Positions 5,034 through 20,000 of a stretch of DNA of 20,000 bases are shown here, piece after piece. The DNA is from an uncultured virus (IMG/VR IMGVR_UViG_3300021085_002396) (Duplodnaviria; Heunggongvirae; Uroviricota; Caudoviricetes), in the IMG/VR virus record IMGVR_UViG_3300021085_002396, one strand, 5' to 3'. Position 1 is the stretch's first letter. Each line of letters begins with the position of its first letter. A program made the translations under genes and the position numbers. The notes beneath the pieces are model-generated. The model had not been told where the DNA came from. It ran no database searches and worked only from the letters and a program-made list of their open reading frames with translations.

Positions 5034-5708
5034 TTATTTTTTAGTGGCTATTAATAAATAGTATCCTTCATCGAGTGTATCTTGAAATTGTATAAACTCA
5101 TAACTAAATCTATCTCCTAAATGTTCTTCTAGTCTTTTATGAGGTATAAACTTTTCATTTTCTAAAAAAGCTATTTGACCATTTTTAGTTAACCTGTCGT
5201 AAACTTCCTCACAAAAATGAGTATGAAATTTAAAATCTTCGTCTAATAAAATTAATCTAGATTGTCTCTCTTCTTCTGGTGTTTCTGTAGGAAACCATTC
5301 AGGGACAGTCTTAGCTAGATTATCAAATTGTTTTTCTTCTACTAAATGAGGAGGGTTAAGAACTATTAAATTAACTTTTGGACCTGTATATGATTTAAAA
5401 CCATCAGACACTTTATGACTAACTTTAAAATTAACTCTCTTTTTATTCTCCTTATAAGAATCTGCTACTTCAGGATTAATATCTAAAAAGTAAGCATTAT
5501 TAAGGTTTAACTTATATGCTAGGTAGTAGCCCATAAACCCTGGACCGCTACACATTTCCATTACGGATGTAGTAGCATTAAACTTATCGAGAACACCTGG
5601 TTTACTCAAAAACTTTTCTATAAAGAAAGGTCCTCCTCCATTATGTTTATTTACATGACTGAGCGATAAATCACACCCCAGTGGTCCATTGATGATGCAA
5701 GTTTCCAT
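5034..5708 (-). CDS. Class I SAM-dependent amino-methyltransferase (PrmC/MTS-like)
   Basis: Motif I EMCSGPGFMG, motif II LDIN, motif IV LNPPH (NPPY-like). Its start overlaps the queF stop (TAATG). Confidence 0.85.
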   Translation of the reverse strand: METCIINGPLGCDLSLSHVNKHNGGGPFFIEKFLSKPGVLDKFNATTSVMEMCSGPGFMGYYLAYKLNLNNAYFLDINPEVADSYKENKKRVNFKVSHKVSDGFKSYTGPKVNLIVLNPPHLVEEKQFDNLAKTVPEWFPTETPEEERQSRLILLDEDFKFHTHFCEEVYDRLTKNGQIAFLENEKFIPHKRLEEHLGDRFSYEFIQFQDTLDEGYYLLIATKK

Positions 5709-6616
5709 TACTGTCTTAAAGTCTTCCTAATAGTATATTCTGGGTTAGTAAAAAATTCTGGAATTAATGATTGATGAGTAGCTCTAATAGGATTAATATC
5801 TAATCCTCCTCTACGAGTATATAAACAAGCAACCATTAACTGTTCTGGTTTACAAGCATCAGATAAATGCTTAAATACCATTTCACATATTTCCTCGTGA
5901 AAATGACTAACTGTTCTATGACTAACAATATATTTAGCTATTGATTCTGCTGTTGGTACGTTTTTACCTATAATCTTAATAAATACATCACCCCAATCTG
6001 GTTGGTTAGTCACTCTACAATTAGACCTTAATAAGTTAGAACTAAATCTAACAGTAGTAGTATCGCTATGCTCTTCAATATCAAGCTGACTTTCATCTGA
6101 TTGGAAAGCTGTAAAGTCTATAGCATCTAAGTTAGCTATTTCTCCTAAATCTGTATACTCTTGAAAAGATAAAGGTTCAGTTTCTAGATCTGAAGCATAG
6201 AAAGTAACAGTTGTTGTAGTCTCTAATAATTCATCTAGATCTCTCTTAACTCTTGCTTCAATACCACTAATACAATCAGCTGCATTATCTCCTATTCTGG
6301 TCATATTAAATGAATTCAAATATAATTTAATTGACTTAGATTCTACGTGAAATTCACTATTACTAGGGCAAACGATTTTTAGCATTCCTGCTACTGGTTG
6401 ACCTTTAGTAGTAATTGCTGATACTTCGTAACAATTCCATGTATCTACTCCTACAAAGCTATCAGATGTTAATCCGTAACCTTCTCTATTTAAGTATCTT
6501 GGTATTTTTACTAGTAGCTCAGGAGCATAGGTATCTTTGTACCCAGCACCTCCTACAGTTCCTAAATGTTTAGATGCAATATCTACAACTTCTTGATAAT
6601 TTTTAACTTCTGCCAT
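5708..6616 (-). CDS. queF: preQ0 nitrile reductase, bimodular (E. coli-type) QueF
   Basis: QueF motif VESKSIKLYLNSF, catalytic Cys in RSNCRVTNQPDWG, FHEEICE, RRGGLDINP. Start moved to ATG 6616 (MAEVKN) to avoid overlapping the upstream gene. Confidence 0.95.
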   Translation of the reverse strand: MAEVKNYQEVVDIASKHLGTVGGAGYKDTYAPELLVKIPRYLNREGYGLTSDSFVGVDTWNCYEVSAITTKGQPVAGMLKIVCPSNSEFHVESKSIKLYLNSFNMTRIGDNAADCISGIEARVKRDLDELLETTTTVTFYASDLETEPLSFQEYTDLGEIANLDAIDFTAFQSDESQLDIEEHSDTTTVRFSSNLLRSNCRVTNQPDWGDVFIKIIGKNVPTAESIAKYIVSHRTVSHFHEEICEMVFKHLSDACKPEQLMVACLYTRRGGLDINPIRATHQSLIPEFFTNPEYTIRKTLRQ

Positions 6617-6617
6617 A

Positions 6618-6983
6618 TTAACCTTTAAATAATTGTTTTTTACCACCCTCATAAACATAAGCGTGACCGTTTTCTATTAATAAATCATTAAGAGATTTTT
6701 CTTCTCCATCTATGAATATTTCTGCAAGTACTCTACCGTACTTACCTTTACCGTAAGATTGTATTTCAAACTTACCATCATTCATCTCTAGGTATTTTTT
6801 CGTAAATTCCGAAGCAAGTAAACCTTTAGCTTTTTCCTCTAGGTTTCTTGTTCTCTTTTCCCAGGTGTCAACACCTTTAAATCTTAACCTAGCTTTTACC
6901 CAGGTACTAAATCCTAAATCGATCATAACATCTGCTGTGTCACCATCTACTACTCTTAGTAATTTTGCTCCGTATCTAAACAT
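6618..6983 (-). CDS. Thermonuclease (staphylococcal nuclease-like)
   Basis: VVDGDT, RLRFKGVDTWE, KYGRVLA and LNDLLIENGHA motifs; no signal peptide. Confidence 0.92.
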   Translation of the reverse strand: MFRYGAKLLRVVDGDTADVMIDLGFSTWVKARLRFKGVDTWEKRTRNLEEKAKGLLASEFTKKYLEMNDGKFEIQSYGKGKYGRVLAEIFIDGEEKSLNDLLIENGHAYVYEGGKKQLFKG

Positions 6984-7497
6984 TTATAAATTTTAATATT
7001 TGTTCTACCCTTTGCATAGGGGAACCAGTTATCGTCAAGTAAGGCTGACGTACACCTTCTAATACTGCTTTAAACTCTTCATCAATATCTGTTCTCCACT
7101 TTTCATTTACACTTCTAACTCCATCATCTACAGAATCAAATTCTATAGGAAAATAAATATAATGAGTATATTCATGCTTTATTCTATTCCAAGTATCATT
7201 AATATACTTGATTGTTCCTCCTCCAACATTATCCATAAATCTTGTATATACTACAACATCCATAAAACATCTATCGAGAACTTGATTATAAGGTTGCAAT
7301 AAAGCCTCTAAGTGAAAACAGCTAATAGCTAACTGAGTAGCTTCTGTTCCTTTCTCATTAATAGGAAATTCGTAACTACTTACAGTTCTAGTAGACTCAT
7401 TTACGAATTCATACTTAGGTAATTTATTTTTAAGTAGTTCATAAACAGTAGTCTTACCTGTACTACTAGCTCCTACTAATGCTATTCTTTTAATCAT
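6976..7497 (-). CDS. P-loop nucleotide kinase (NadR/AAA_28 or dNMP kinase-like)
   Basis: Walker A GASSTGKTT, LDRCFMD, DDGVR lid and ITGSPMQR. Confidence 0.8.
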   Translation of the reverse strand: MIKRIALVGASSTGKTTVYELLKNKLPKYEFVNESTRTVSSYEFPINEKGTEATQLAISCFHLEALLQPYNQVLDRCFMDVVVYTRFMDNVGGGTIKYINDTWNRIKHEYTHYIYFPIEFDSVDDGVRSVNEKWRTDIDEEFKAVLEGVRQPYLTITGSPMQRVEQILKFINV

Positions 7498-7515: not shown

Positions 7516-7546
7516 TAAAGATAAGAAATTTACTTCGTATTTCCTA
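7516..7546 (-). promoter_or_regulatory. Bacteroidota-type promoter upstream of kinase-nuclease-queF-methyltransferase
   Basis: TAGG(7546-7543)-N19-TATCTTTA(7523-7516). Confidence 0.65.
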
Positions 7547-8078
7547 ATAATTCTTTTAAAAATTCTAACCACAAATATAACGATCTATCCCTCATAGTTT
7601 CCCACATCTCCGTTTCTGTAATACCCCAAGAGTTAAAGAATATTTCCTTTAAGACTCTTCCTTCATCTACTCCTGCAGTAACTTTATGTATTACTGCTCC
7701 CATTACTTCATGTTTTGCTAGATATGCTTTAAGTTGAGGATCTTTACCTTTTAATTCAGGGTACCTAGTAATCAAACCTGGATGTCCATTGTATATATTA
7801 AACTTATCACAAATTTCAGGAGGCATAATTCTTAACCAACCATGTAATGTTATTGTAGCTTCCGGAAAATAAACTAAAAACTCTTCATAATCCTCTAACG
7901 TAGGTTTATTAGGTAATGTATAGAATCCTTTTTCTACAATTCTAGGATCTACAGTTCGAAGATCTTCCGGTCTATCGTTAGTATAAATTCTATCAGGCCA
8001 TCGACCTATTGATTCCGCTATGTCTGCTATTTCTTTACCAGTTTGGCTAAAGAACGTTATCCACATTTTGCTGTCCAT
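7530..8078 (-). CDS. dpdN: PurN-like formyltransferase; candidate preQ1 formyltransferase (DpdN-like)
   Basis: GAR transformylase catalytic N/H/D in YNGHPGL and IHKVTAGVDEG, plus LHGWLRIM. The fold is clear; the dpdN label rests on the dpdA-like/queF context. Confidence 0.75.
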   Translation of the reverse strand: MDSKMWITFFSQTGKEIADIAESIGRWPDRIYTNDRPEDLRTVDPRIVEKGFYTLPNKPTLEDYEEFLVYFPEATITLHGWLRIMPPEICDKFNIYNGHPGLITRYPELKGKDPQLKAYLAKHEVMGAVIHKVTAGVDEGRVLKEIFFNSWGITETEMWETMRDRSLYLWLEFLKELLGNTK

Positions 8079-8874
8079 TTGTAAACCATCTAAATTTTTG
8101 AATATTACTTTTAATATATGTTAATTGATCTTCATTAACTTCATAGTTAATTAATTCAAATAACTTCTGAGATTCTTTATCCCATAGTCCTTGATCTTTA
8201 TAGATTATTTCTTTTATTCCATGTACTACAGGATTAGATGTATCTAAAGAGTATATCCAATCATAGTTAGATTCTCTATATAACATAAACTCTTGAGGTA
8301 AACCACATCCTAATAAATGATGAGGCTTATCTTTATTAATAACATCGTTTTTAACTAAATCTCCAAGTAGCTTTGCACGTCCTAGCATCCAACTAACGTA
8401 CTTGTTAGGATGCGGACAAACCTCTTCATAATACGAATAATCAAAAGATATAGCAATCATATCTACAGGAGCTACTTTATCCATATAGTCGTAACAGCTA
8501 GCTATTGATTCATATGTTTTACCTTGTACTACTCCAATTGCTTTTCCCGGTAGACTATCTTTAGGATACTTTTCAAAAAACTTATGAGCTTGATCACAAG
8601 TCTTAAAACATTGCTCTAAAGCATCTGGAACTATATACCAAGTGGGTTTTAGTTCTTTTATCCAGTATGCAAATCTATCAGCATCGAATGCTTCTTCTAA
8701 TTCAAATATAGAATTATCTAAAATTACTTCTCTACCGTTTGCTAATGCATCTTTAAAGTGTTGAAGGTACTCTTCGTCTTCTTCAAATAAATGTACTAAA
8801 GCATAATCGTAGTCTGTAAATTTCTGTACAGTACTAAAAATACTCTTTGGTGATTCGTGTGCTATCTTAATCAA
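8047..8874 (-). CDS. dpdA: TGT-fold transglycosylase, DpdA-like
   Basis: TGT/DpdA-type motifs ILDNSIFE (cf. DSGGF), IVPD, GVVQG, HHLLG and SLDTSNP (cf. DS/DC). It lacks the TGT zinc-binding C-terminus and sits inside the que cluster. Confidence 0.75.
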   Translation of the reverse strand: MIKIAHESPKSIFSTVQKFTDYDYALVHLFEEDEEYLQHFKDALANGREVILDNSIFELEEAFDADRFAYWIKELKPTWYIVPDALEQCFKTCDQAHKFFEKYPKDSLPGKAIGVVQGKTYESIASCYDYMDKVAPVDMIAISFDYSYYEEVCPHPNKYVSWMLGRAKLLGDLVKNDVINKDKPHHLLGCGLPQEFMLYRESNYDWIYSLDTSNPVVHGIKEIIYKDQGLWDKESQKLFELINYEVNEDQLTYIKSNIQKFRWFTNGQQNVDNVL

Positions 8875-9049
8875 TATCTAAATCTTTAAATGCGTTATTT
8901 AAATCCATAGTAGATTTTTTTATTGTATCTACTACCTGTTCAAGTGACTTATTACTTGCATAAGCCTCTGCTAGAGCTTTCACTGCTATATCGTAAGGTA
9001 CATATAAAGTACCTTCTACTTCTTTTTTATGTTCGTCTAAGTTAATCAT
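8867..9049 (-). CDS. Small hypothetical protein (60 aa)
   Basis: Overlaps both neighbours by 8 nt, consistent with translational coupling. Confidence 0.65.
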   Translation of the reverse strand: MINLDEHKKEVEGTLYVPYDIAVKALAEAYASNKSLEQVVDTIKKSTMDLNNAFKDLDID

Positions 9050-9587
9050 TAAAAAATTGTTTAAGGTCGGGTCTAAAATAACTAAGGCTTTTCAATACTT
9101 TTCTATCTCTTGTTCTGTAGACAACGTACCGTCCTTCCGCAACCTTCTCAAAATGACAGGCCTCACCTTGCTCCTTAGCTCTTTGGCTGACACTCTGTAT
9201 GGCCTCTTCTTCAGTTTTGCAAGCTTTTGACATATTAGAAGCTTGTACTTCTTGATATGCTGGCCATATCTTATCTTTAAGGCCATGTAGCATAGTACCG
9301 TTCCCAAGGGAAACATAAGTAATGTCGCACAAAGCGTCCAAAACTTCCACAATGTCCCCTCTTTCGCAAGCTTCTCTATATTCTTCGAGTTCTTCGAGGA
9401 TAAAATCATAGACAAATTTCCACTCTTTGTATTCTGGGATGACTGGTTCATAGTTATTAGTTTTTCCGAATGTATTATTAAATGTTTCTACTTCATCTAC
9501 AAAAGGAACTCCGTTAGTCCATACTGGTAGCGGTTCCATGTCTTTCATCTCATTATCTGAGAATAATGTTAATTGGTTATCTTTCAT
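9042..9587 (-). CDS. MazG-like all-alpha NTP pyrophosphohydrolase
   Basis: ILEELEEY...EVLDALCDITYV metal motif, plus EVQASNMSK and KVLKS. Confidence 0.88.
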   Translation of the reverse strand: MKDNQLTLFSDNEMKDMEPLPVWTNGVPFVDEVETFNNTFGKTNNYEPVIPEYKEWKFVYDFILEELEEYREACERGDIVEVLDALCDITYVSLGNGTMLHGLKDKIWPAYQEVQASNMSKACKTEEEAIQSVSQRAKEQGEACHFEKVAEGRYVVYRTRDRKVLKSLSYFRPDLKQFFND

Positions 9588-9924
9588 AATCGTCTTCTAA
9601 TCTTACTATATCGTCTTCTCCGAAATAGCTTCCTGTTTGTGTTTCTATAAATTGTGATACTTCCATAGTATCGTTAAATGCTCTGTGTTTAGCTCCTTGA
9701 GGAATAACTATTGAATCCCCAGGATATAACTCATGTAAAACATCATCTAAAATAACTGATAATTTACCTTTTACACAAGCCCAAACTTCTGATCTTTTAT
9801 GATGGTATTGATAAGATAATCTACCGCCTGGTTTTACAGTTATAATTTTAACCTTAGTTGTATCAGTATCTAATAATACATCATAACAACCCCAAGGTCT
9901 TTCATCGTGTTCTAATGCTTGCAT
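9577..9924 (-). CDS. Cupin, type II phosphomannose isomerase C-terminal-like
   Basis: RPWG, LSYQYHHKRSEVW, IPQGAKHR and GSYFGEDDIVRLEDDY. Confidence 0.9.
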   Translation of the reverse strand: MQALEHDERPWGCYDVLLDTDTTKVKIITVKPGGRLSYQYHHKRSEVWACVKGKLSVILDDVLHELYPGDSIVIPQGAKHRAFNDTMEVSQFIETQTGSYFGEDDIVRLEDDYER

Positions 9925-10625
9925 ATACTTGCTAATTCTATATTTTTATAAAACTCTGCTTTAGCTGAGTCTTCATTTAGAAATGCTCCAGTTAATTTAG
10001 CTGTTTGCATAGAAGCTCCTCCATGCTTAACTCCTCTACATGATACACATGCATGAGTTGCATTTACTTGAACTGCTACTCCTAAATTACCTTCACATAT
10101 CTTATCTACAGCATTATGTATAGCTACAGTTAGCTGTTCTTGAATAGCTCCTCTTCTGCCGAATTGCTCTACTATTCTATTTAATTTAGATAGTCCTACT
10201 ACCTTACCATCTTCTGATGCTATATAAGCAATACTTACTGTACCTCTAATAGCTTGATGGTGATGAGAGCACATAGACGTTACAGGTATATTACTTTCCT
10301 GTACAATACCGTCATAACCGTCAGATGGAAATGCTGTAATACGATCTAGTGGAGCATATCTTCCAGCCCATAAATCGTTAACGTATGCTTTTGCTACTCT
10401 CATTGGAGTATCTGAAGAGTTAGGATCATCAGCATAATCACATCCTAAGGCAGTTAGAAAATCTGCATATGCTTTTGCTGCATTATCTATAATAACTTGC
10501 TTCTCTTCAGCATTTAACCTTGCTTCAGGTCCTTCTTTCTCCTGTTTCTTTGCTAATTGACTTGATATTCCGTTAGCAAAACCGGCTCGAACTAATTCTG
10601 TTCCTTCTATAAACTTTTTAGGCAT
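9912..10625 (-). CDS. folE: GTP cyclohydrolase I
   Basis: TPMRVAK, SMCSHHH, GLSKLNR, QEQLT and HACVSCRGV. Confidence 0.97.
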   Translation of the reverse strand: MPKKFIEGTELVRAGFANGISSQLAKKQEKEGPEARLNAEEKQVIIDNAAKAYADFLTALGCDYADDPNSSDTPMRVAKAYVNDLWAGRYAPLDRITAFPSDGYDGIVQESNIPVTSMCSHHHQAIRGTVSIAYIASEDGKVVGLSKLNRIVEQFGRRGAIQEQLTVAIHNAVDKICEGNLGVAVQVNATHACVSCRGVKHGGASMQTAKLTGAFLNEDSAKAEFYKNIELASICKH

Positions 10626-10634
10626 AATATAACT

Positions 10635-10662
10635 TCTGTTTTTATTGAGGTTCTACGACTCA
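10635..10662 (-). ncRNA. preQ1 class I riboswitch-like aptamer upstream of folE
   Basis: UGAG-UCGUAGAAC-CUCA-AUAAAAA-CAGA: P1 stem, loop beginning with U and ending in C, A-rich tail, and pseudoknot pairs G-C and U-A. It ends 9 nt before the folE AUG. Confidence 0.8.
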
Positions 10663-10670
10663 TTGTTAAT

Positions 10671-10701
10671 ACAATATAGTAATTTATTTTTAATTATCCA
10701 A
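10671..10701 (-). promoter_or_regulatory. Bacteroidota-type promoter upstream of the riboswitch and folE
   Basis: TTGG(10701-10698)-N19-TATATTGT(10678-10671). Confidence 0.72.
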
Positions 10702-11088
10702 ATAATCTTGGATGGATTTTGCGTTTTCATTTTCCCATGGGTATACAATCCATTCAGGTCCTACTTCTTCAACATAGTAATTAGGTTTAAATACTGATTG
10801 TTTTTTATAGTGTAGAGATGCATACATAGGTTTTGGACATTCATCATAATACTTTTTAAATGTTTTTCCTGTGTCAGCTATATCATCAATAACTAATAAG
10901 TGAGGATAATGATTACTAATGTTGTTAAAATACTCAACTCCAAATCTATGAGAATATAAGATAGCTATTATTGCTCCTCCTCTTGGAATACCTGTTACTA
11001 ATCTAGCTTTCCCTCCTACTTGTTCATGTAACTTATCTAAAAGTACATTTATATCGTCCCAAGTTAAATATACTTTCTCTACTCCCAT
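10690..11088 (-). CDS. Type I phosphoribosyltransferase, xanthine/guanine PRT-like
   Basis: GIPRGG, PRPP-binding LVIDDIADTGKT and C-terminal WIVYPWE as in Gpt. Confidence 0.88.
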   Translation of the reverse strand: MGVEKVYLTWDDINVLLDKLHEQVGGKARLVTGIPRGGAIIAILYSHRFGVEYFNNISNHYPHLLVIDDIADTGKTFKKYYDECPKPMYASLHYKKQSVFKPNYYVEEVGPEWIVYPWENENAKSIQDYLDN

Positions 11089-11142
11089 GTATGATTTGTT
11101 GTCCAGTAATTATCTGGTAATTCTATTGTTGCGATAACTGAG

Positions 11143-11457
11143 TTATCCGTTCCACTTTTCTCCAAAAAATTCATAATTTAATTTAACATATTTATCTGTG
11201 CCATCTTTTTCTATGGCTGTTTCTTCATCTTCGTAGATTGCATCTACTGGACATTCCGGAAGACAAGCACCACAGTCGATACATTCTTCAGGATTAATAT
11301 AGAGCATTTTATTAACTAGCTCTTCTTTACTCATATCTGCTACTTCAGCTCCTGCTCCATCTACTTTAATAGGACCATGTATACAATCTACTGGGCAAAC
11401 TGCTACACAAGCTGTATCACAGGTACTAACGCAAGGATGTCCAATTATATAACTCAT
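11143..11457 (-). CDS. Dicluster ferredoxin (FdxA-like)
   Basis: CVSTCDTACVAVCPVDC and CIDCGACLPECPVDAI; start overlaps the queE stop (TAATG). Confidence 0.93.
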   Translation of the reverse strand: MSYIIGHPCVSTCDTACVAVCPVDCIHGPIKVDGAGAEVADMSKEELVNKMLYINPEECIDCGACLPECPVDAIYEDEETAIEKDGTDKYVKLNYEFFGEKWNG

Positions 11458-12236
11458 TAGACTTCTCTTTGATCTTCAAATGCAATAATATGAGGTCTCC
11501 AGGTCATTCTATAACCATTATCTCTAACCCAATCAAATAATATAGGGTAAGATTTATATAAAGCTTCTCTACTATCTCCAGCAGGCATAAACCATACTTT
11601 ATCTTTTGGAGCATTTAGTGTTTCAATACATTCCATAATTTCATTTAGAGCATTATTATCTTTACCGTCCCAAACAGGTTTAATATGGTAATCAGAATGA
11701 TAGTCCATACTCTGTTTTATAGTATCGTATTTTAATCTAAATTTATTATGTTGTTTAATCATTCTTTCGTCTGTAGTCGCTCCTTGAGGCGTAGATACTC
11801 CCAGTACAGGAACACTATTGGAGAACTTAGGACTAATAGAAAGCAAATTAATAGGATAATCAGTGGGTAGAAAATGGCTTCCTTCAGTCTCGATAGTAAT
11901 AAAGATATTTCTTTCATTAGCAAAGTGTGTTAATTCGTTTACAAGTTTTTTATGCATAGTAGGTGAACCTCCAGTTAACATCATTTCTGATATTTGAGGA
12001 TTCTTATCGTACATTTCTATAATATCGTTAAACGAATATTGACCTTTTTCTGGATGAATACTTGTATACCAAGAATCACACCAACCGCCTTCACCAAAAT
12101 AACATCTGTGAGTACATCCTGTAGTCCTAATTACTACCGTTGGGTATCCTGCTCTTGAGCCTTCTGATTGGACTGCAGTATATATTTCTACAATCGGTAA
12201 GTTTTTATCATAATCTTCTATTCTACCTAGGGACAT
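11457..12236 (-). CDS. queE: 7-carboxy-7-deazaguanine synthase (radical SAM)
   Basis: EIYTAVQSEG, GYPTVVIRTTGC, WCDS, TGGSP, IETEG and SISPK; the cluster motif is CX3CX7C. Confidence 0.93.
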   Translation of the reverse strand: MSLGRIEDYDKNLPIVEIYTAVQSEGSRAGYPTVVIRTTGCTHRCYFGEGGWCDSWYTSIHPEKGQYSFNDIIEMYDKNPQISEMMLTGGSPTMHKKLVNELTHFANERNIFITIETEGSHFLPTDYPINLLSISPKFSNSVPVLGVSTPQGATTDERMIKQHNKFRLKYDTIKQSMDYHSDYHIKPVWDGKDNNALNEIMECIETLNAPKDKVWFMPAGDSREALYKSYPILFDWVRDNGYRMTWRPHIIAFEDQREV

Positions 12237-12690
12237 ATAGTGCTGAGTTTTTACCGTGTTCTCTAAATTCTACTTTTATAACTTTTACTCTACCTTCAGT
12301 TTCCGTCTCTATGAACGGAGCTAGCTTTTCGTATATATATTGTGAGAACTTCTCTGCTCCTGTAGCAGGTACTACTCTAACCTGTGCTATACCCTTCTCA
12401 TCTAGCTTTAATGCTTCAGGTAAAAATGGATCGTCTTCTGCTATCAAGTATGTATGATCAAACATATAATCCATCCATGCTTTAGGTGATTTTCCGTCAA
12501 TTAAGGTTTTAGCTCTTTTCATTCCTCCAAAGTCCCAGACCCAATTACGATTATCTAATTCTCCTTCAAACCAGAGTTTAAATGATACTCCATAACCGTG
12601 AAGAAATCTACAGTGAGTTGTTTCGGCTTTCCATTGACGAAAGACGGTACTAAATCCATCGAATACTTTTGTTGATTGATATTTTGCCAT
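12223..12690 (-). CDS. queD: 6-carboxytetrahydropterin synthase (T-fold PTPS family)
   Basis: HCRFLHGY, WVWDFG, FDHTYL, GAEKF and EHGKNSA; adjacent to queE. Confidence 0.9.
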   Translation of the reverse strand: MAKYQSTKVFDGFSTVFRQWKAETTHCRFLHGYGVSFKLWFEGELDNRNWVWDFGGMKRAKTLIDGKSPKAWMDYMFDHTYLIAEDDPFLPEALKLDEKGIAQVRVVPATGAEKFSQYIYEKLAPFIETETEGRVKVIKVEFREHGKNSALYVPR

Positions 12691-12700
12691 AACTTATTTT

Positions 12701-12973
12701 TTATACTAATTCTTCGATTATACCTACTATTTCAGATAATATAAGAAGAATAGCTGAGGTTACCAAATTAAATGGTATAAAACAGTATCCTAGTATTCTA
12801 ATACCGGATTTAATAAACGATACAATCTGGTGCTTCTTTGCATCAGGGTAGTTAATCGATTCATCAGATGTAATTTTGTTTTGATGTATACGGTTCGCTA
12901 AGTATTGCTCTTCCGTCATTCTGCGAGACTCTACATCATAGAGATCATTCTCGACTTCCTTTAAGTCCATCAT
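12701..12973 (-). CDS. Small protein with a hydrophobic C-terminus (probable membrane protein)
   Basis: C-terminus IVSFIKSGIRILGYCFIPFNLVTSAILLILSEIVGII. Start reassigned to ATG 12973 because the GTG at 13003 lies inside the RNA aptamer. Confidence 0.7.
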   Translation of the reverse strand: MMDLKEVENDLYDVESRRMTEEQYLANRIHQNKITSDESINYPDAKKHQIVSFIKSGIRILGYCFIPFNLVTSAILLILSEIVGIIEELV

Positions 12974-12976
12974 TTT

Positions 12977-13004
12977 CGTGTTTTTTAAGTGGTGCTGTGA
13001 CACT
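12977..13004 (-). ncRNA. preQ1 class I riboswitch-like aptamer heading the membrane protein-queD-queE-fdx operon
   Basis: AGUG-UCACAGCAC-CACU-UAAAAAA-CACG has the same 4-9-4-7-4 layout as the folE copy, with compensatory changes. It ends 3 nt before the AUG. Confidence 0.78.
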
Positions 13005-13020
13005 GTCGTCTAATTATACT

Positions 13021-13051
13021 ATAATATAAGAAAGTTATTTCTAATTTCCAA
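13021..13051 (-). promoter_or_regulatory. Bacteroidota-type promoter upstream of the riboswitch and queD operon
   Basis: TTGG(13051-13048)-N19-TATATTAT(13028-13021). Confidence 0.72.
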
Positions 13052-13684
13052 CTAGATTATATAATTTTCTTCTAACCCATACCTCCAAAATCCAAATGCA
13101 TCTCCGGTAAGATTTAAATACCAATAAATATGTTTATCTATATATCTCTCAACCTTTAATAGCCTCCTCTTATATAGTATTCTACCTAGCATTCCATCTT
13201 CACCATATCTTGTATTATCTGGTATTTCTTTCCATGCTTCTTTTGCTATATCTGTTTTAATAACACATTTGCAGTCTGTAGGTGCTACTATATCGAAACC
13301 GTACATATTCTCCCATCTTTCCGCGTACCTCTTTCTAAAATCACATACTAACATTTTGCCGGGGATACTTTCGTTAGGTTTTCCATCAAATTCTTGTACC
13401 ATTCTATACGATACAGAGTCTGGTTGGAATTCTAATTCTTTCATTATATGATGTATACCTAAAGGGTGAATCCAATCATCATCATCCCACTGTACGCTGT
13501 AAGGCATAGTAGACATTTCATAAAGAAGTCTTCTTTTCTTACCTAAAGGCATTTCTTTTTGATCTGAAAGGTATATTATTTCTACTTTATCGCCAAAAGG
13601 TTCTGCTTGTCTTTTTAGCTCAGCTAATAGAGGATTAAAAACATGAGAACGAGAAACAGTTGTTGGAATCTGTATAGATAACAT
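13052..13684 (-). CDS. GT-A fold (family 2-like) glycosyltransferase
   Basis: LSIQIPT...R, LGKKR, DxD-type WDDDDW and GED. Confidence 0.85.
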   Translation of the reverse strand: MLSIQIPTTVSRSHVFNPLLAELKRQAEPFGDKVEIIYLSDQKEMPLGKKRRLLYEMSTMPYSVQWDDDDWIHPLGIHHIMKELEFQPDSVSYRMVQEFDGKPNESIPGKMLVCDFRKRYAERWENMYGFDIVAPTDCKCVIKTDIAKEAWKEIPDNTRYGEDGMLGRILYKRRLLKVERYIDKHIYWYLNLTGDAFGFWRYGLEENYII

Positions 13685-15291
13685 TAAAAGTCTAAGTTTG
13701 TAGTAGCAGTAAAACTTCCAGAGAATGTTAATGGTGAATTTTGACCGTACTTATTATGTAACATTTTAACTGAATCAGCCTGTAGTGAGTAACTACCGGA
13801 TAAATGTTCTGTAGGATTATAAATTACTTCACTAGCATTTGCAAAGACTACTTCTTGCATTTTAGCTGGTGTTAATCCTGGGGATGACTGTGCATATAGA
13901 GCTACTACACCGCATACTTGTGGAGCTGCCATTGATGTACCATTTAATATAGATTCCCAATACGCACCGTTATGAGTATAAGAACCTCTTGCGTATCCTG
14001 AGGTATTACTTACTGATGAAAGTATACGTGAACCGGGTGCATAAATGTTTACTCCAGGTCCGTGATTTGAAAAAGAAGCTCTTTTATCTATGTAGTTACT
14101 TCCAGATTGTACTTGATCTTCATCAATACATCCAACCATAAAAGCTTTATCAGAATAAGGTGATGAACCTCTAGAATAATATCTCCATTGAGTATTTTTA
14201 ATCAATGCTTGATTATTATAATCAGCTCCTGAAGGTACATCTATCTTATGATTACTATTTCCTGAAGCAATTATTACGTGGATGCCTTCTTCTACCATTT
14301 CTTCAATATCGGTATCTACAGAAGTTATTCTTACTGGGTGTTTCCATGTGCCTAACAAACCTATACTAGGCGCAAATTCGTTTAGCCCAAACGCTTTAAG
14401 TTCTCCTCCAAAGGAGTTTTGTATGACGGTAGAACTATATGACGTTCCTCTATAATTTACTGCGTATGCTGTAGAGCCTCCTGTAAATTTTGCAGAATAC
14501 CCCCAAGACATATTGACTACTGTCGGTCTTTTATACCCGGTAGCAGGGTCAATAGCCTTTTGTCTGTGGAATAATTTAATTGCATCTAATGCATAACTAT
14601 CATCTATTCCAGTAGCACCGTCACCAGAGCCTTCTAAACCTCTTATTTTTAAGGAGTATATTTTTGCATTCTTAGCCCATCCAAAGGTTTTTCCTGCTGC
14701 TATACCTGCACAATGAGTACCGTGACCATCATTATCTCTTTCATGGTTAGCATTTTGAGTAAATCCTGTATGAATAGAACCCCAATCTATAAATGTATAC
14801 CTGGATACTCCATGCTGATCTTCCCATTCTGGATGATCAGTTTGTACTCCGGAATCAACAATAACTACGTCTACTCCTTTTCCATCTAAAGTATAATTAT
14901 AAGTTTCATCTATAATTTCATTACCGTTATAGGTATTATCTTTAGTATTGCATCTTAATAGTCCCCAGTTTTTATCTCCTGAAGATAATGAAGGGCTTCT
15001 ATTATACGATCCGCTAATTATAGCTCCGTGTTCTTTTACTATATCATTTCTCTGTTCAGGTGGTATTTCAATATCTAAAACACTAGGATGTTCTAAGAGG
15101 TCATCTTTTTCAGCTTCTGTCAACCAGTAGTGTGTTTGGCGATAACTACCTAATCTCGGATTGGCTATTTCCACTTGCCTATTAGGTACATTATCTTTTT
15201 CTGTAATTTCTTTTAGATCTTCCCAAAATAAATCATAGTCTACTTCTTTATGAAGGATAATATTATATTCTCTCTCATTAAATTCTGGCAT
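13684..15291 (-). CDS. S8 subtilisin-like serine protease
   Basis: Catalytic triad in VVIVDSG, HGTHCAG and GTSMAAPQV; NMSWG; oxyanion ASGN; N-terminal propeptide-like region. Confidence 0.95.
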   Translation of the reverse strand: MPEFNEREYNIILHKEVDYDLFWEDLKEITEKDNVPNRQVEIANPRLGSYRQTHYWLTEAEKDDLLEHPSVLDIEIPPEQRNDIVKEHGAIISGSYNRSPSLSSGDKNWGLLRCNTKDNTYNGNEIIDETYNYTLDGKGVDVVIVDSGVQTDHPEWEDQHGVSRYTFIDWGSIHTGFTQNANHERDNDGHGTHCAGIAAGKTFGWAKNAKIYSLKIRGLEGSGDGATGIDDSYALDAIKLFHRQKAIDPATGYKRPTVVNMSWGYSAKFTGGSTAYAVNYRGTSYSSTVIQNSFGGELKAFGLNEFAPSIGLLGTWKHPVRITSVDTDIEEMVEEGIHVIIASGNSNHKIDVPSGADYNNQALIKNTQWRYYSRGSSPYSDKAFMVGCIDEDQVQSGSNYIDKRASFSNHGPGVNIYAPGSRILSSVSNTSGYARGSYTHNGAYWESILNGTSMAAPQVCGVVALYAQSSPGLTPAKMQEVVFANASEVIYNPTEHLSGSYSLQADSVKMLHNKYGQNSPLTFSGSFTATTNLDF

Positions 15292-19376: not shown

Positions 19377-19450
19377 TGGAGAATATCGGAGTCGAACCGA
19401 TGACCTCCTGCGTGCAAGGCAGGCGCTCTAGCCAGCTGAGCTAATCCCCC
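19377..19450 (-). tRNA. tRNA-Ala (anticodon UGC), CCA not encoded
   Basis: GGGGGATTAGCTCAGCTGGCTAGAGCGCCTGCCTTGCACGCAGGAGGTCATCGGTTCGACTCCGATATTCTCCA: cloverleaf, G3-U70 identity pair, TTCGA T-loop, discriminator A followed by CAA. Confidence 0.97.
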
Positions 19451-19456
19451 TACCTA

Positions 19457-19603
19457 CTATATAGAGCGGTTTCTTCTTCTGTTCTCCCACTCTACTCTCT
19501 TTGTCGCTCCCAACATCTTATACTTTTCAATTCTTCTATTAAAATCATTTCGAGTACTATTAGTATGTGGGTTTCCTGTACTTGTGTTATCGTTATTGCT
19601 CAT
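19457..19603 (-). CDS. Small basic hypothetical protein (48 aa) not in the ORF track
   Basis: MSNNDNTSTGNPHTNSTRNDFNRRIEKYKMLGATKRVEWENRRRNRSI; overlaps the queC end by 11 nt and fills the gap to the tRNA. Confidence 0.55.
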   Translation of the reverse strand: MSNNDNTSTGNPHTNSTRNDFNRRIEKYKMLGATKRVEWENRRRNRSI

Positions 19604-20000
19604 GCTCTGCTAATAATTTTTTAACATGTGCTTTCGCAATTGCGTAATCCACAGGTCCAGTTTCGTCTTCATACTGAACGGGATCATCAACACCCAACTC
19701 AATAAACGCTTCAATTCTTTCCACCGATGATGCAGACTTGTAGTCTGAGTTACCGGACGGGTAAGGTTTGTAAGACGTGTTTGTTCTCTTGTATACTTGT
19801 ACAAAATCCAGTTCCAATGCATCTATAAGTAATTGTCCATCTTGTAAAATTCCTAATTTATCTGTATCTAAGTAAGGAGTAAAATACCCTACCTTATCTG
19901 CTTCCCAGTTACCTATTCTAAAGGCAGCATCGTCAGCATCTCTAAACTCTTGTCTACAATCTGGATAAATTGCATGATCACCTGCATGTATTCCTAAAGC
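19593..20000 (-). CDS. queC: 7-cyano-7-deazaguanine synthase, C-terminal part (start outside the window)
   Basis: The frame is open from the window edge: ALGIHAGDHAIYPDCRQEF...TPYL..DK...TNTSY...SASSVERIEAF...DPVQY, including the YPDCR QueC motif. Confidence 0.93.
   Translation of the reverse strand, partial: ALGIHAGDHAIYPDCRQEFRDADDAAFRIGNWEADKVGYFTPYLDTDKLGILQDGQLLIDALELDFVQVYKRTNTSYKPYPSGNSDYKSASSVERIEAFIELGVDDPVQYEDETGPVDYAIAKAHVKKLLAEHEQ

Follow-up and report, generated by a model that had tools for sequence, protein, structure and literature searches.

The window analysed here is a stretch of 20,000 nucleotides from a 113,071-base virus record (33.6% G+C, with 137 of the 141 called ORFs on one strand), and two of its leaders, judged by sequence, very probably carry a ligand-binding riboswitch of the preQ1-I class. 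The feature is a new, compact variant of this riboswitch, the class and its pocket being already known, and at 28 nt it is smaller than the class I aptamers for which we found a size in the literature. Its primary output is probably the steric occlusion, by a preQ1-driven pseudoknot, of translation initiation that uses no Shine-Dalgarno (SD) sequence. The first-pass annotation of this DNA had read the 3' part of each leader as an A-rich aptamer tail running almost directly into a start codon, and both tails match that reading exactly: positions 12987-12971 of the minus strand hold the A-rich tail and, after a spacer of 3 nt, the ATG that opens the ORF at 12973-12701, and in the folE leader the aptamer tail is followed by a 9-nt spacer (10634-10626) and the ATG at 10625.

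As judged from its sequence, the phage is related to Flavobacterium phage immuto, and its host is likely to be of the Flavobacteria type; the best cultured matches of its FolE are those of immuto (76.5%) and of Cellulophaga phages (70%). In immuto DNA, G is described as wholly replaced by formyl-preQ1, and in phiST by 7-deazaguanine without QueC (PMC10516641); the same paper gives the name DpdN to the immuto protein YP_010114479. The coordinates of the promoters, aptamers and genes are collected in Table 1. The small ORF under the first aptamer is hydrophobic and conserved in its C-terminal half, varies strongly at its N-terminus and precedes queD in many relatives; it had no Pfam or PHROG match, and the Atlas gave only unnamed viral clusters for it. 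Its distance from queD was 9-10 nt in 13 of 26 relatives and 153-162 nt in 4 of the 26. The modification cluster also holds a P-loop kinase-like gene (6976-7497), a MazG-like gene (9042-9587) and the phosphoribosyltransferase-like gene (10690-11088), and a tRNA gene (19377-19450, TGC anticodon in the Rfam alignment) adjoins queC. When the window QueF was compared with immuto (L255:12690-13610), one TAA fell inside the match even though a full gene is annotated there, which is probably an effect of the match edge. RNA-library contigs over 9900-13700 (three runs) cover much of the cluster, and contigs of this kind cannot show starts, strand or level; single contigs end at 13003, 12975, 12965 and 10654 and another crosses the folE leader, ends from which starts are not deducible.

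Table 1. Positions of predicted promoters, aptamers and genes in the window.
Feature	Coordinates	Strand	Description
Predicted promoter 1	13021..13051	-	Putative TTG at 13051-13049 and -7-like element at 13028-13021
Predicted start of promoter 1	near 13016	-	Predicted leader of 43 nt
Aptamer 1 (28 nt)	12977..13004	-	P1 5' strand 13004-13001; 9-nt loop 13000-12992; P1 3' strand 12991-12988; A-rich L3 and P2 strand 12987-12977
Aptamer 1 tail and start	12971..12987	-	L3 A-tract at -8 to -13; C at -7 (equivalent of Tte C30); A at -6; G at -4 pairs with loop C; free AAA at -3 to -1; ATG
Small ORF (90 aa)	12701..12973	-	First gene under aptamer 1; hydrophobic C-terminus, variable N-terminus
queD (PTPS family)	12223..12690	-	PF01242, E 2e-13; 10 nt past the small ORF stop
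queE-like radical SAM gene	11457..12236	-	PF04055; overlaps queD; gene order as in annotated queD-queE of immuto
4Fe-4S ferredoxin	11143..11457	-	Fer4 families
Phosphoribosyltransferase-like gene	10690..11088	-	PF00156 below cut-off; phrog_8995
Predicted promoter 2	10671..10701	-	Putative TTG at 10701-10699 and -7-like element at 10678-10671
Predicted start of promoter 2	near 10666	-	4 nt 5' of P1; predicted leader of 41 nt
Aptamer 2 (28 nt)	10635..10662	-	P1 sequence differs from aptamer 1, pairing the same; P2 strand at -13 to -10; A-tract at -18 to -14
folE, GTP cyclohydrolase I	9912..10625	-	Pathway step one; PF01227, E 5e-42; 76.5% identity to immuto FolE
DpdA3-type DNA transglycosylase gene	8047..8874	-	72% identity to annotated immuto DpdA; no aptamer
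DpdN-like formyltransferase	7530..8078	-	51% identity to immuto YP_010114479
queF, preQ1-making	5708..6658	-	PF14819 and PF14489; no aptamer
queC	19593..20000	-	PF06508; cut at the window edge, complete in the genome; no aptamer

A descriptor built from both window sites matched exactly these two places in the 113,071-base genome and nothing in 60 Markov-simulated genomes, a weak control because the descriptor was fitted after the fact; the descriptor and the model search agreed that the whole genome holds only two copies. In the model search aptamer 1 scored 43.2 bits and aptamer 2 scored 44.3 bits, with the row of each included in the model. Rfam returned no preQ1 match for the window, for either site or for three cellular loci, and neither window aptamer reached an RF00522 score at the gathering threshold or even at E<=10. 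The predicted stem energy was marginal at the two window sites (-0.5 and -0.7 kcal/mol) and the median predicted P1 probability across the aptamer family was 0.03, as computed by folding programs that do not see the pseudoknot. At site 1 a stronger competing hairpin (-2.4 kcal/mol, 12992-13003) is predicted, in which the 5' stem strand pairs with the loop end and the tail stays free; this hairpin, which could possibly be the ligand-free fold, is absent from the folE site. Without ligand, positions -14 to -1 were predicted to be open at 0.89 and 0.74, compared with a genome mean of 0.60.

The first viral scan used a 15-base pattern with no stem demand beyond the closing pair and yielded at least 134 stretches; among the 134 matches listed, the stem reached 4 bp or more in 105 (exactly 4 bp in 103), and the 29 with a shorter stem were dropped. 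Because this pattern fixes the pocket bases, the test was repeated on loci picked by protein, namely 80 loci chosen by FolE similarity, in which only a 4-bp stem with a loop of 7-12 nt before the start was demanded and no loop or tail sequence was imposed. Such a stem was found before 32 of 52 distinct folE starts and 25 of 26 small-ORF starts, always with a 9-nt loop, compared with 2/44 for queD, 3/45 for queE (one of them a true copy), 2/50 for dpdA, 0/17 for queF and 1/36 for dpdN as controls. None of the 57 copies departed from the closing G-C pair, the loop U, A and G, the specificity C or the C-A that follows the A-run, and L3 held a run of 4-7 adenines in every one; the 'AC' before the P1 3' strand had its A in 56/57 and its C in 57/57, C7 was kept in 55/57 and a purine at position 8 in 57/57. 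These loci are related, so descent contributes to this conservation.

Covariation was read from an alignment of 38 rows, which were chosen for pairing and from which 9 rows with insertions or deletions were excluded. In the register of the Tte aptamer, three P1 pairs showed two-sided changes in 17, 5 and 10 of the 38 rows. The 9-33 pair was held in 26/38 rows, with two-sided changes in 5, and broken in 12, including immuto, and the G11-C30 pair was invariant and is thus uninformative alone on P2. An alternative register (pairing in only 12-13 of the 38 rows), a stem of five pairs (the fifth failing in 37/38) and a contiguous P2 register were rejected. The first-pass annotation had suggested that a minimal 4-bp P1 and a 9-nt loop may define a compact subtype, and the sample bears this out, with a stem of exactly 4 bp in 74 of 77 distinct phage copies and a loop of 9 nt in all 57 copies from the protein-picked loci. 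The class I leaders stood before folE, (ORF)-queD-queE, queD or queE in phages and before queC or queD in cells, and every copy assigned to a gene sat on the sense strand of that gene. When the commonest loop was excluded, a second viral scan listed 104 stretches, of which 28 had a stem of 4 bp or longer, mostly of known types and a few chance-like; for the stem type of the cellular copies, a further viral scan turned up a single stretch, which was unscored by the aptamer pattern.

The leader layout was examined in the 77 distinct phage copies, of which one (L134) was set aside because no ATG follows within 70 nt, leaving 76. The aptamer ended 1-10 nt before the ATG in 76 of the 77 (median 3) and 1-3 nt from the AUG in 41/77, and its length was 28 nt in 66/76. 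As had been noted for the two window sites, neither has an SD or a terminator, and the only minus-strand terminator-like sites in the window are at 29, 2278 and 18776. Across the family, GGAG, GAGG or AGGA occurred at -18 to -4 in 0/76 phage copies (best anti-SD duplex -1.7 kcal/mol), and an E. coli-type scan, which could miss weak terminators, found a terminator-like site within the aptamer or the 76 nt that follow it in 0/76. In the genome at large, GGAG lay in the SD zone of 2/120 confident starts vs 4/120 in the control zone, GGAGG in 0/120, and an anti-SD duplex reached -3.5 kcal/mol in 12.5% of starts vs 20% of random stretches; SD absence is therefore genome-wide, not special to the aptamer leaders and not discriminating.

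A promoter-like hexamer was present within 42 nt upstream in 73/76 phage copies, compared with 18% of the non-coding background. The pattern TTG-N19/20-TATATT, which resembles a variant of the Bacteroidetes -33/-7 consensus as described in PMC6847099, occurs at 26 non-coding sites in the genome, both window promoters among them. The predicted leaders of the window aptamers (43 and 41 nt, vs 12-26 nt for most other predicted promoters) would consist almost only of the aptamer, which lies 4-12 nt from the predicted 5' end. Across copies the predicted promoter-to-stem distance varied from 4 to 33 nt and the 3' distance to the AUG never exceeded 10 nt, which marks the 3' side as the constrained one; short leaders are normal in this genome, so compaction could explain part of the proximity to the AUG. 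With 76/77 copies 1-10 nt from the AUG, neither an SD nor a terminator-like site in any of the 76 and little in the leader beyond the aptamer, the SD-independent translational switch put forward in the first-pass annotation is the best reading of these leaders.

How the A-rich tail would act is a separate matter. Initiation in F. johnsoniae is reported to be promoted by A-3, A-6, A-12, A-13 and low structure (PMC6847099), and the reading of A-12/A-13 by bS1 is presented as a hypothesis in PMC13000457; at the starts of the present genome, A peaks at -11 to -13 (0.54-0.59) and reaches only 0.45 at -3. It had been proposed that ligand binding docks the A-tract into the pseudoknot and so hides these enhancer adenines. 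One part of this proposal stands, as -11 and -12 lay within the aptamer in 76/76 phage copies; position -3, however, was outside it in 63/76 and at both window sites. The tract is likewise only partly aligned with the positions in question, for the tail overlaps the A-rich zone (A in 96% of the 76 phage copies at -10, 93% at -11, 72% at -12 and 45% at -13), but A stood at both -12 and -13 in only 23/76, and in the folE leader the tract lies at -14 to -18 and the P2 strand takes up -10 to -13. Since the tail overlaps the A-rich zone and is not phased to its key positions, a steric block by the folded pseudoknot fits better, and is simpler, than masking of a specific enhancer.

We propose that both leaders are compact class I preQ1 riboswitches, which would act on SD-free translation initiation. 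The phage transcript would start a few bases 5' of the aptamer. At low ligand the weak 4-bp stem would be mostly open, and the A-rich tail would serve as an ordinary, unstructured initiation region of the Bacteroidota type. As preQ1 accumulates, it would bind between the stem and the loop, the tail adenines would enter the stem groove, the tail C would pair with the loop G, and the pseudoknot would close to within 1-10 nt of the AUG. The fold, stabilised by its ligand, would then sit within the footprint of the 30S subunit and deny the ribosome the A-rich region from -9 to -12. In this way folE would be turned down directly, and queD-queE indirectly through coupling or polarity from the first ORF, giving feedback on the three opening steps of the route from GTP to the formyl-preQ1 base that would replace G in the phage DNA. 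A direct switch of queD at site 1 does not agree with the gene order, as the aptamer leads the small ORF and not queD; control of queD-queE thus needs coupling, Rho polarity or decay, and mRNA may also fall as a result, even if the first event is translational. Published precedents are a preQ1-I pseudoknot that is reported to repress translation, with no pairing to an SD, even when it lies as far as 24 nt from the start codon (PMC10018353), and B. thetaiotaomicron TPP switches less than 5 nt from the start, for which translation-only action is described and no mechanism given (10.1101/867226).

We also examined how the aptamer is distributed among relatives and in cells. Among 52 loci with long flanks, 44 had the aptamer together with queF, 6 had neither, 2 had queF only and none had the aptamer alone; the loci without queF are spread over about three positions in a quick FolE tree, and the association is therefore suggestive only. 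Immuto has queF and one aptamer, 5 nt before folE, and phiST has neither. A cellular scan gave at least 120 genome matches, and among the matches listed 16 had a 4-bp stem, mostly in Thalassospira, Vibrio and Marinomonas. In the genus Thalassospira the aptamer was present once in 37/37 genomes, before queC (loci L136, L150 and L488-L499; Rfam missed the tested copy, L136). In the 12 loci read, it lay 13-15 nt before the queC AUG, with queC-queD-queE in the two for which genes were listed, and its last G began GAAAG or GAGAG, an overlap with an SD-like 5-mer that is complementary to the CTTTC after CCTC in the Thalassospira 16S tail, if this lies within the mature 16S end. In Vibrio and Marinomonas the downstream ATG (of a queD-like gene where this was read) followed the aptamer at 58-63 nt, and a hairpin is predicted to cover a separate AGGA. 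Four of these loci (L186, L200, L209, L178) and L234 have two predicted hairpins after the aptamer, the second covering the SD-like element that belongs to a gene some 60 nt downstream; this arrangement is predicted to be a different platform. One aptamer thus has three spacings, which track the initiation mode of the host. The presence of the 4-bp-stem aptamer in SD-using Proteobacteria (Thalassospira and others) means that it is neither phage-only nor an adaptation to SD-less initiation, and the idea of a compact subtype tied to SD-less hosts has to be given up.

Within the Bacteroidota, a model search of Zobellia's family found no copy in 151 genomes (strict filters, 48 candidates scored per genome). 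Of 401 genomes from the phylum, 62 matched the pattern; all 75 matches were read, and the single 4-bp stem among them lay in a coding frame. One of the 151 Zobellia-family genomes, a genome bin, holds a 50-bit Rfam type I preQ1 aptamer (L344; G034:C41:20088-20132, minus strand) that ends about 6 nt before a transporter-like gene and has no AGGA, making it a candidate cellular SD-less switch. The gene after this aptamer may be YhhQ-like.

Several other explanations of these leaders were weighed against translational occlusion by the preQ1-bound fold. The aptamer may bind preQ1 and yet act mainly at the transcript level, by mRNA decay, by pausing linked to the pseudoknot or by Rho-dependent termination within the first ORF. 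The operon often opens with a gene that does not belong to the pathway (the small ORF, or the 197-aa protein in L017) and the gap to queD is variable, a combination that pure translational control explains poorly, and the aptamer keeps its position at the head of the operon even with an unrelated first gene. (The 197-aa protein, at L017:1528-2121, has a lipoprotein-like N-terminus and lies between the aptamer and the small ORF-queD-queE; similar ORFs occur in L036 and L037.) Moreover, switches that act by pausing alone would have no terminator (PMC11625349), and Rho is described as often following a translational block (PMC10907184). Control of this kind, however, has no need of the 1-10 nt limit to the AUG or of the SD overlap in Thalassospira, the C-over-G skew after the two starts was unremarkable (79th and 42nd percentile) in a test that is uninformative for Rho sites, and a preQ1-I switch (Can) is reported to have left mRNA levels unchanged (PMC10018353). 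We therefore regard mainly transcript-level action as unlikely. About equally improbable, in our judgement, is that the same occlusion is triggered by something other than preQ1, such as preQ0, a formylated or nucleotide form, guanine, or a leader-binding protein (e.g. the small ORF product or FolE). L2 is one base and P1 one pair shorter than in Tte, Tte itself is reported to favour preQ1 over preQ0 only 17-fold (PMC10622847), and the phage end product is unusual (PMC10516641), all of which would suit another trigger. Yet every pocket position is kept, the aptamers travel with queF, the same aptamer stands at the front of an ordinary queC-queD-queE operon in Thalassospira, with none of the phage genes close by, and a type III switch with a 9-nt loop is reported to favour preQ1 133-fold (PMC10622847).

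It is a good deal less probable still that the folded aptamer is an ON element or a 5' stabiliser that protects the mRNA or presents the start codon. The mere 4-12 nt between it and the predicted 5' ends of the window leaders would allow this, and a phage that replaces all of its G would gain from high output; but the preQ1-I switches described in PMC10622847, PMC11625349 and PMC10018353 are OFF switches, a fold 1-3 nt from the AUG (41/77 copies) would need to be melted for initiation, and the controlled genes make the ligand. Hardly credible is a promoter-proximal DNA operator or a chance pattern with no RNA function, even though the motif is short, has no Rfam match and includes a 4-bp inverted repeat that could be a protein site on DNA, since several stem sequences keep the pairing, the loop and tail match the RNA pocket, and all copies assigned to a gene are on its sense strand. 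The preferred reading stays with occlusion of SD-free initiation by the preQ1-bound pseudoknot. A broader view, which we hold only tentatively and consider possible rather than likely, is that this is a 28-nt riboswitch in which the bases of the aptamer double as the ribosome-loading signal. The L3 adenines would be read by the Bacteroidota 30S (possibly through bS1) in the free state and by the P1 groove once preQ1 has bound. Phages would use it to meter the precursor of a DNA hypermodification, and SD-using marine Proteobacteria would combine the same aptamer with either an SD overlap or a platform formed by a separate hairpin.

A 2024 review predicts SD-free translational preQ1 switches and describes finding them as an open challenge (PMC11625349), the expression platform is treated as almost always holding the ribosome-binding site (PMC10907184), and phage riboswitches are described as rare (PMC5473149, PMC9004378). 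Among top-ranked titles and abstract openings, which included few subscription papers, neither this compact subtype nor a phage preQ1 switch appeared; the McCown 2014 alignments may include such environmental sequences. The family bears on the view that phages rarely use riboswitches, as expressed in PMC5473149, and shows that Rfam misses a whole preQ1-I subtype. It also offers 76 natural variants whose spacers measure 1-10 nt, a phage and its host that are both in culture (immuto and Flavobacterium sp. LMO8) and, in Thalassospira, an SD-using counterpart with the same aptamer, so that steric block and enhancer masking can be directly tested against each other.

Among known preQ1-I systems, the phage aptamer is closest in sequence to the type II switch of Tte (RF00522; as described in PMC11625349 and PMC10622847), with which it shares the G-C floor, loop U, C7, purine 8, A10 and G11, the 'AC' before the P1 3' strand, the L3 adenines, C30, A31, the 9-33 pair (in 26/38 rows) and the translational position. 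Unlike Tte, it has a 4-bp stem with the fifth position unpaired in 37/38 rows and a 9-nt rather than a 10-nt loop, is 28 nt long and phage-borne, falls below any Rfam score and has no SD in P2. The sequence marks of type II ('AC', the C7-G11-C30 ceiling and purine 8 with A31) are thus all present and the dimensions of Tte (a 10-nt G5-C16 loop and a stem to position 1) are not, and the two type II platforms, an SD in P2 as in Tte and an intrinsic terminator as in Bsu, were each found in 0/76 phage copies. With the type III switch of E. coli yhhQ (PMC10622847) it has in common a 9-nt loop, the 'AC' specificity motif and a very compact fold; the yhhQ loop, in contrast, has a UU start and is a pyrimidine-rich anti-SD loop that buries AAGG, and the phage loop is purine-rich and type II-like, starting with UC in 55/57 and carrying AG, with a tail that continues C-A. 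The type I switch of C. antarcticum, as presented in PMC10018353, resembles it in using the pseudoknot as a steric block and in having a dispensable terminal P2 pair, but was studied with engineered spacers in E. coli and an SD, whereas the phage leaders are natural and without SD; it also binds two ligands and has UU and UC motifs, and in the phage copies AC, not UC, precedes the P1 3' strand.

Outside the preQ1-I class, the TPP switches of B. thetaiotaomicron (10.1101/867226) are likewise found in Bacteroidota, less than 5 nt from the start codon, with control at the level of translation as shown by fusions; they are cellular, belong to another riboswitch class, and their mechanism is left open by the authors. 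The related phage immuto has the same gene set (DpdA 72%, DpdN 51%, FolE 76.5%, polymerase 60%) and one aptamer at its folE, but lacks the second copy; the main text of the paper on its modification carries no mention of a riboswitch. Finally, the glutamine riboswitches of cyanophages and Melnitz and the c-di-GMP-I riboswitches of C. difficile prophages are, like the present family, metabolite-sensing RNAs in phage (PMC5473149, PMC9004378), but these are called rare in the sources cited, whereas the compact aptamer is frequent within a single phage group, where it is linked to DNA modification.
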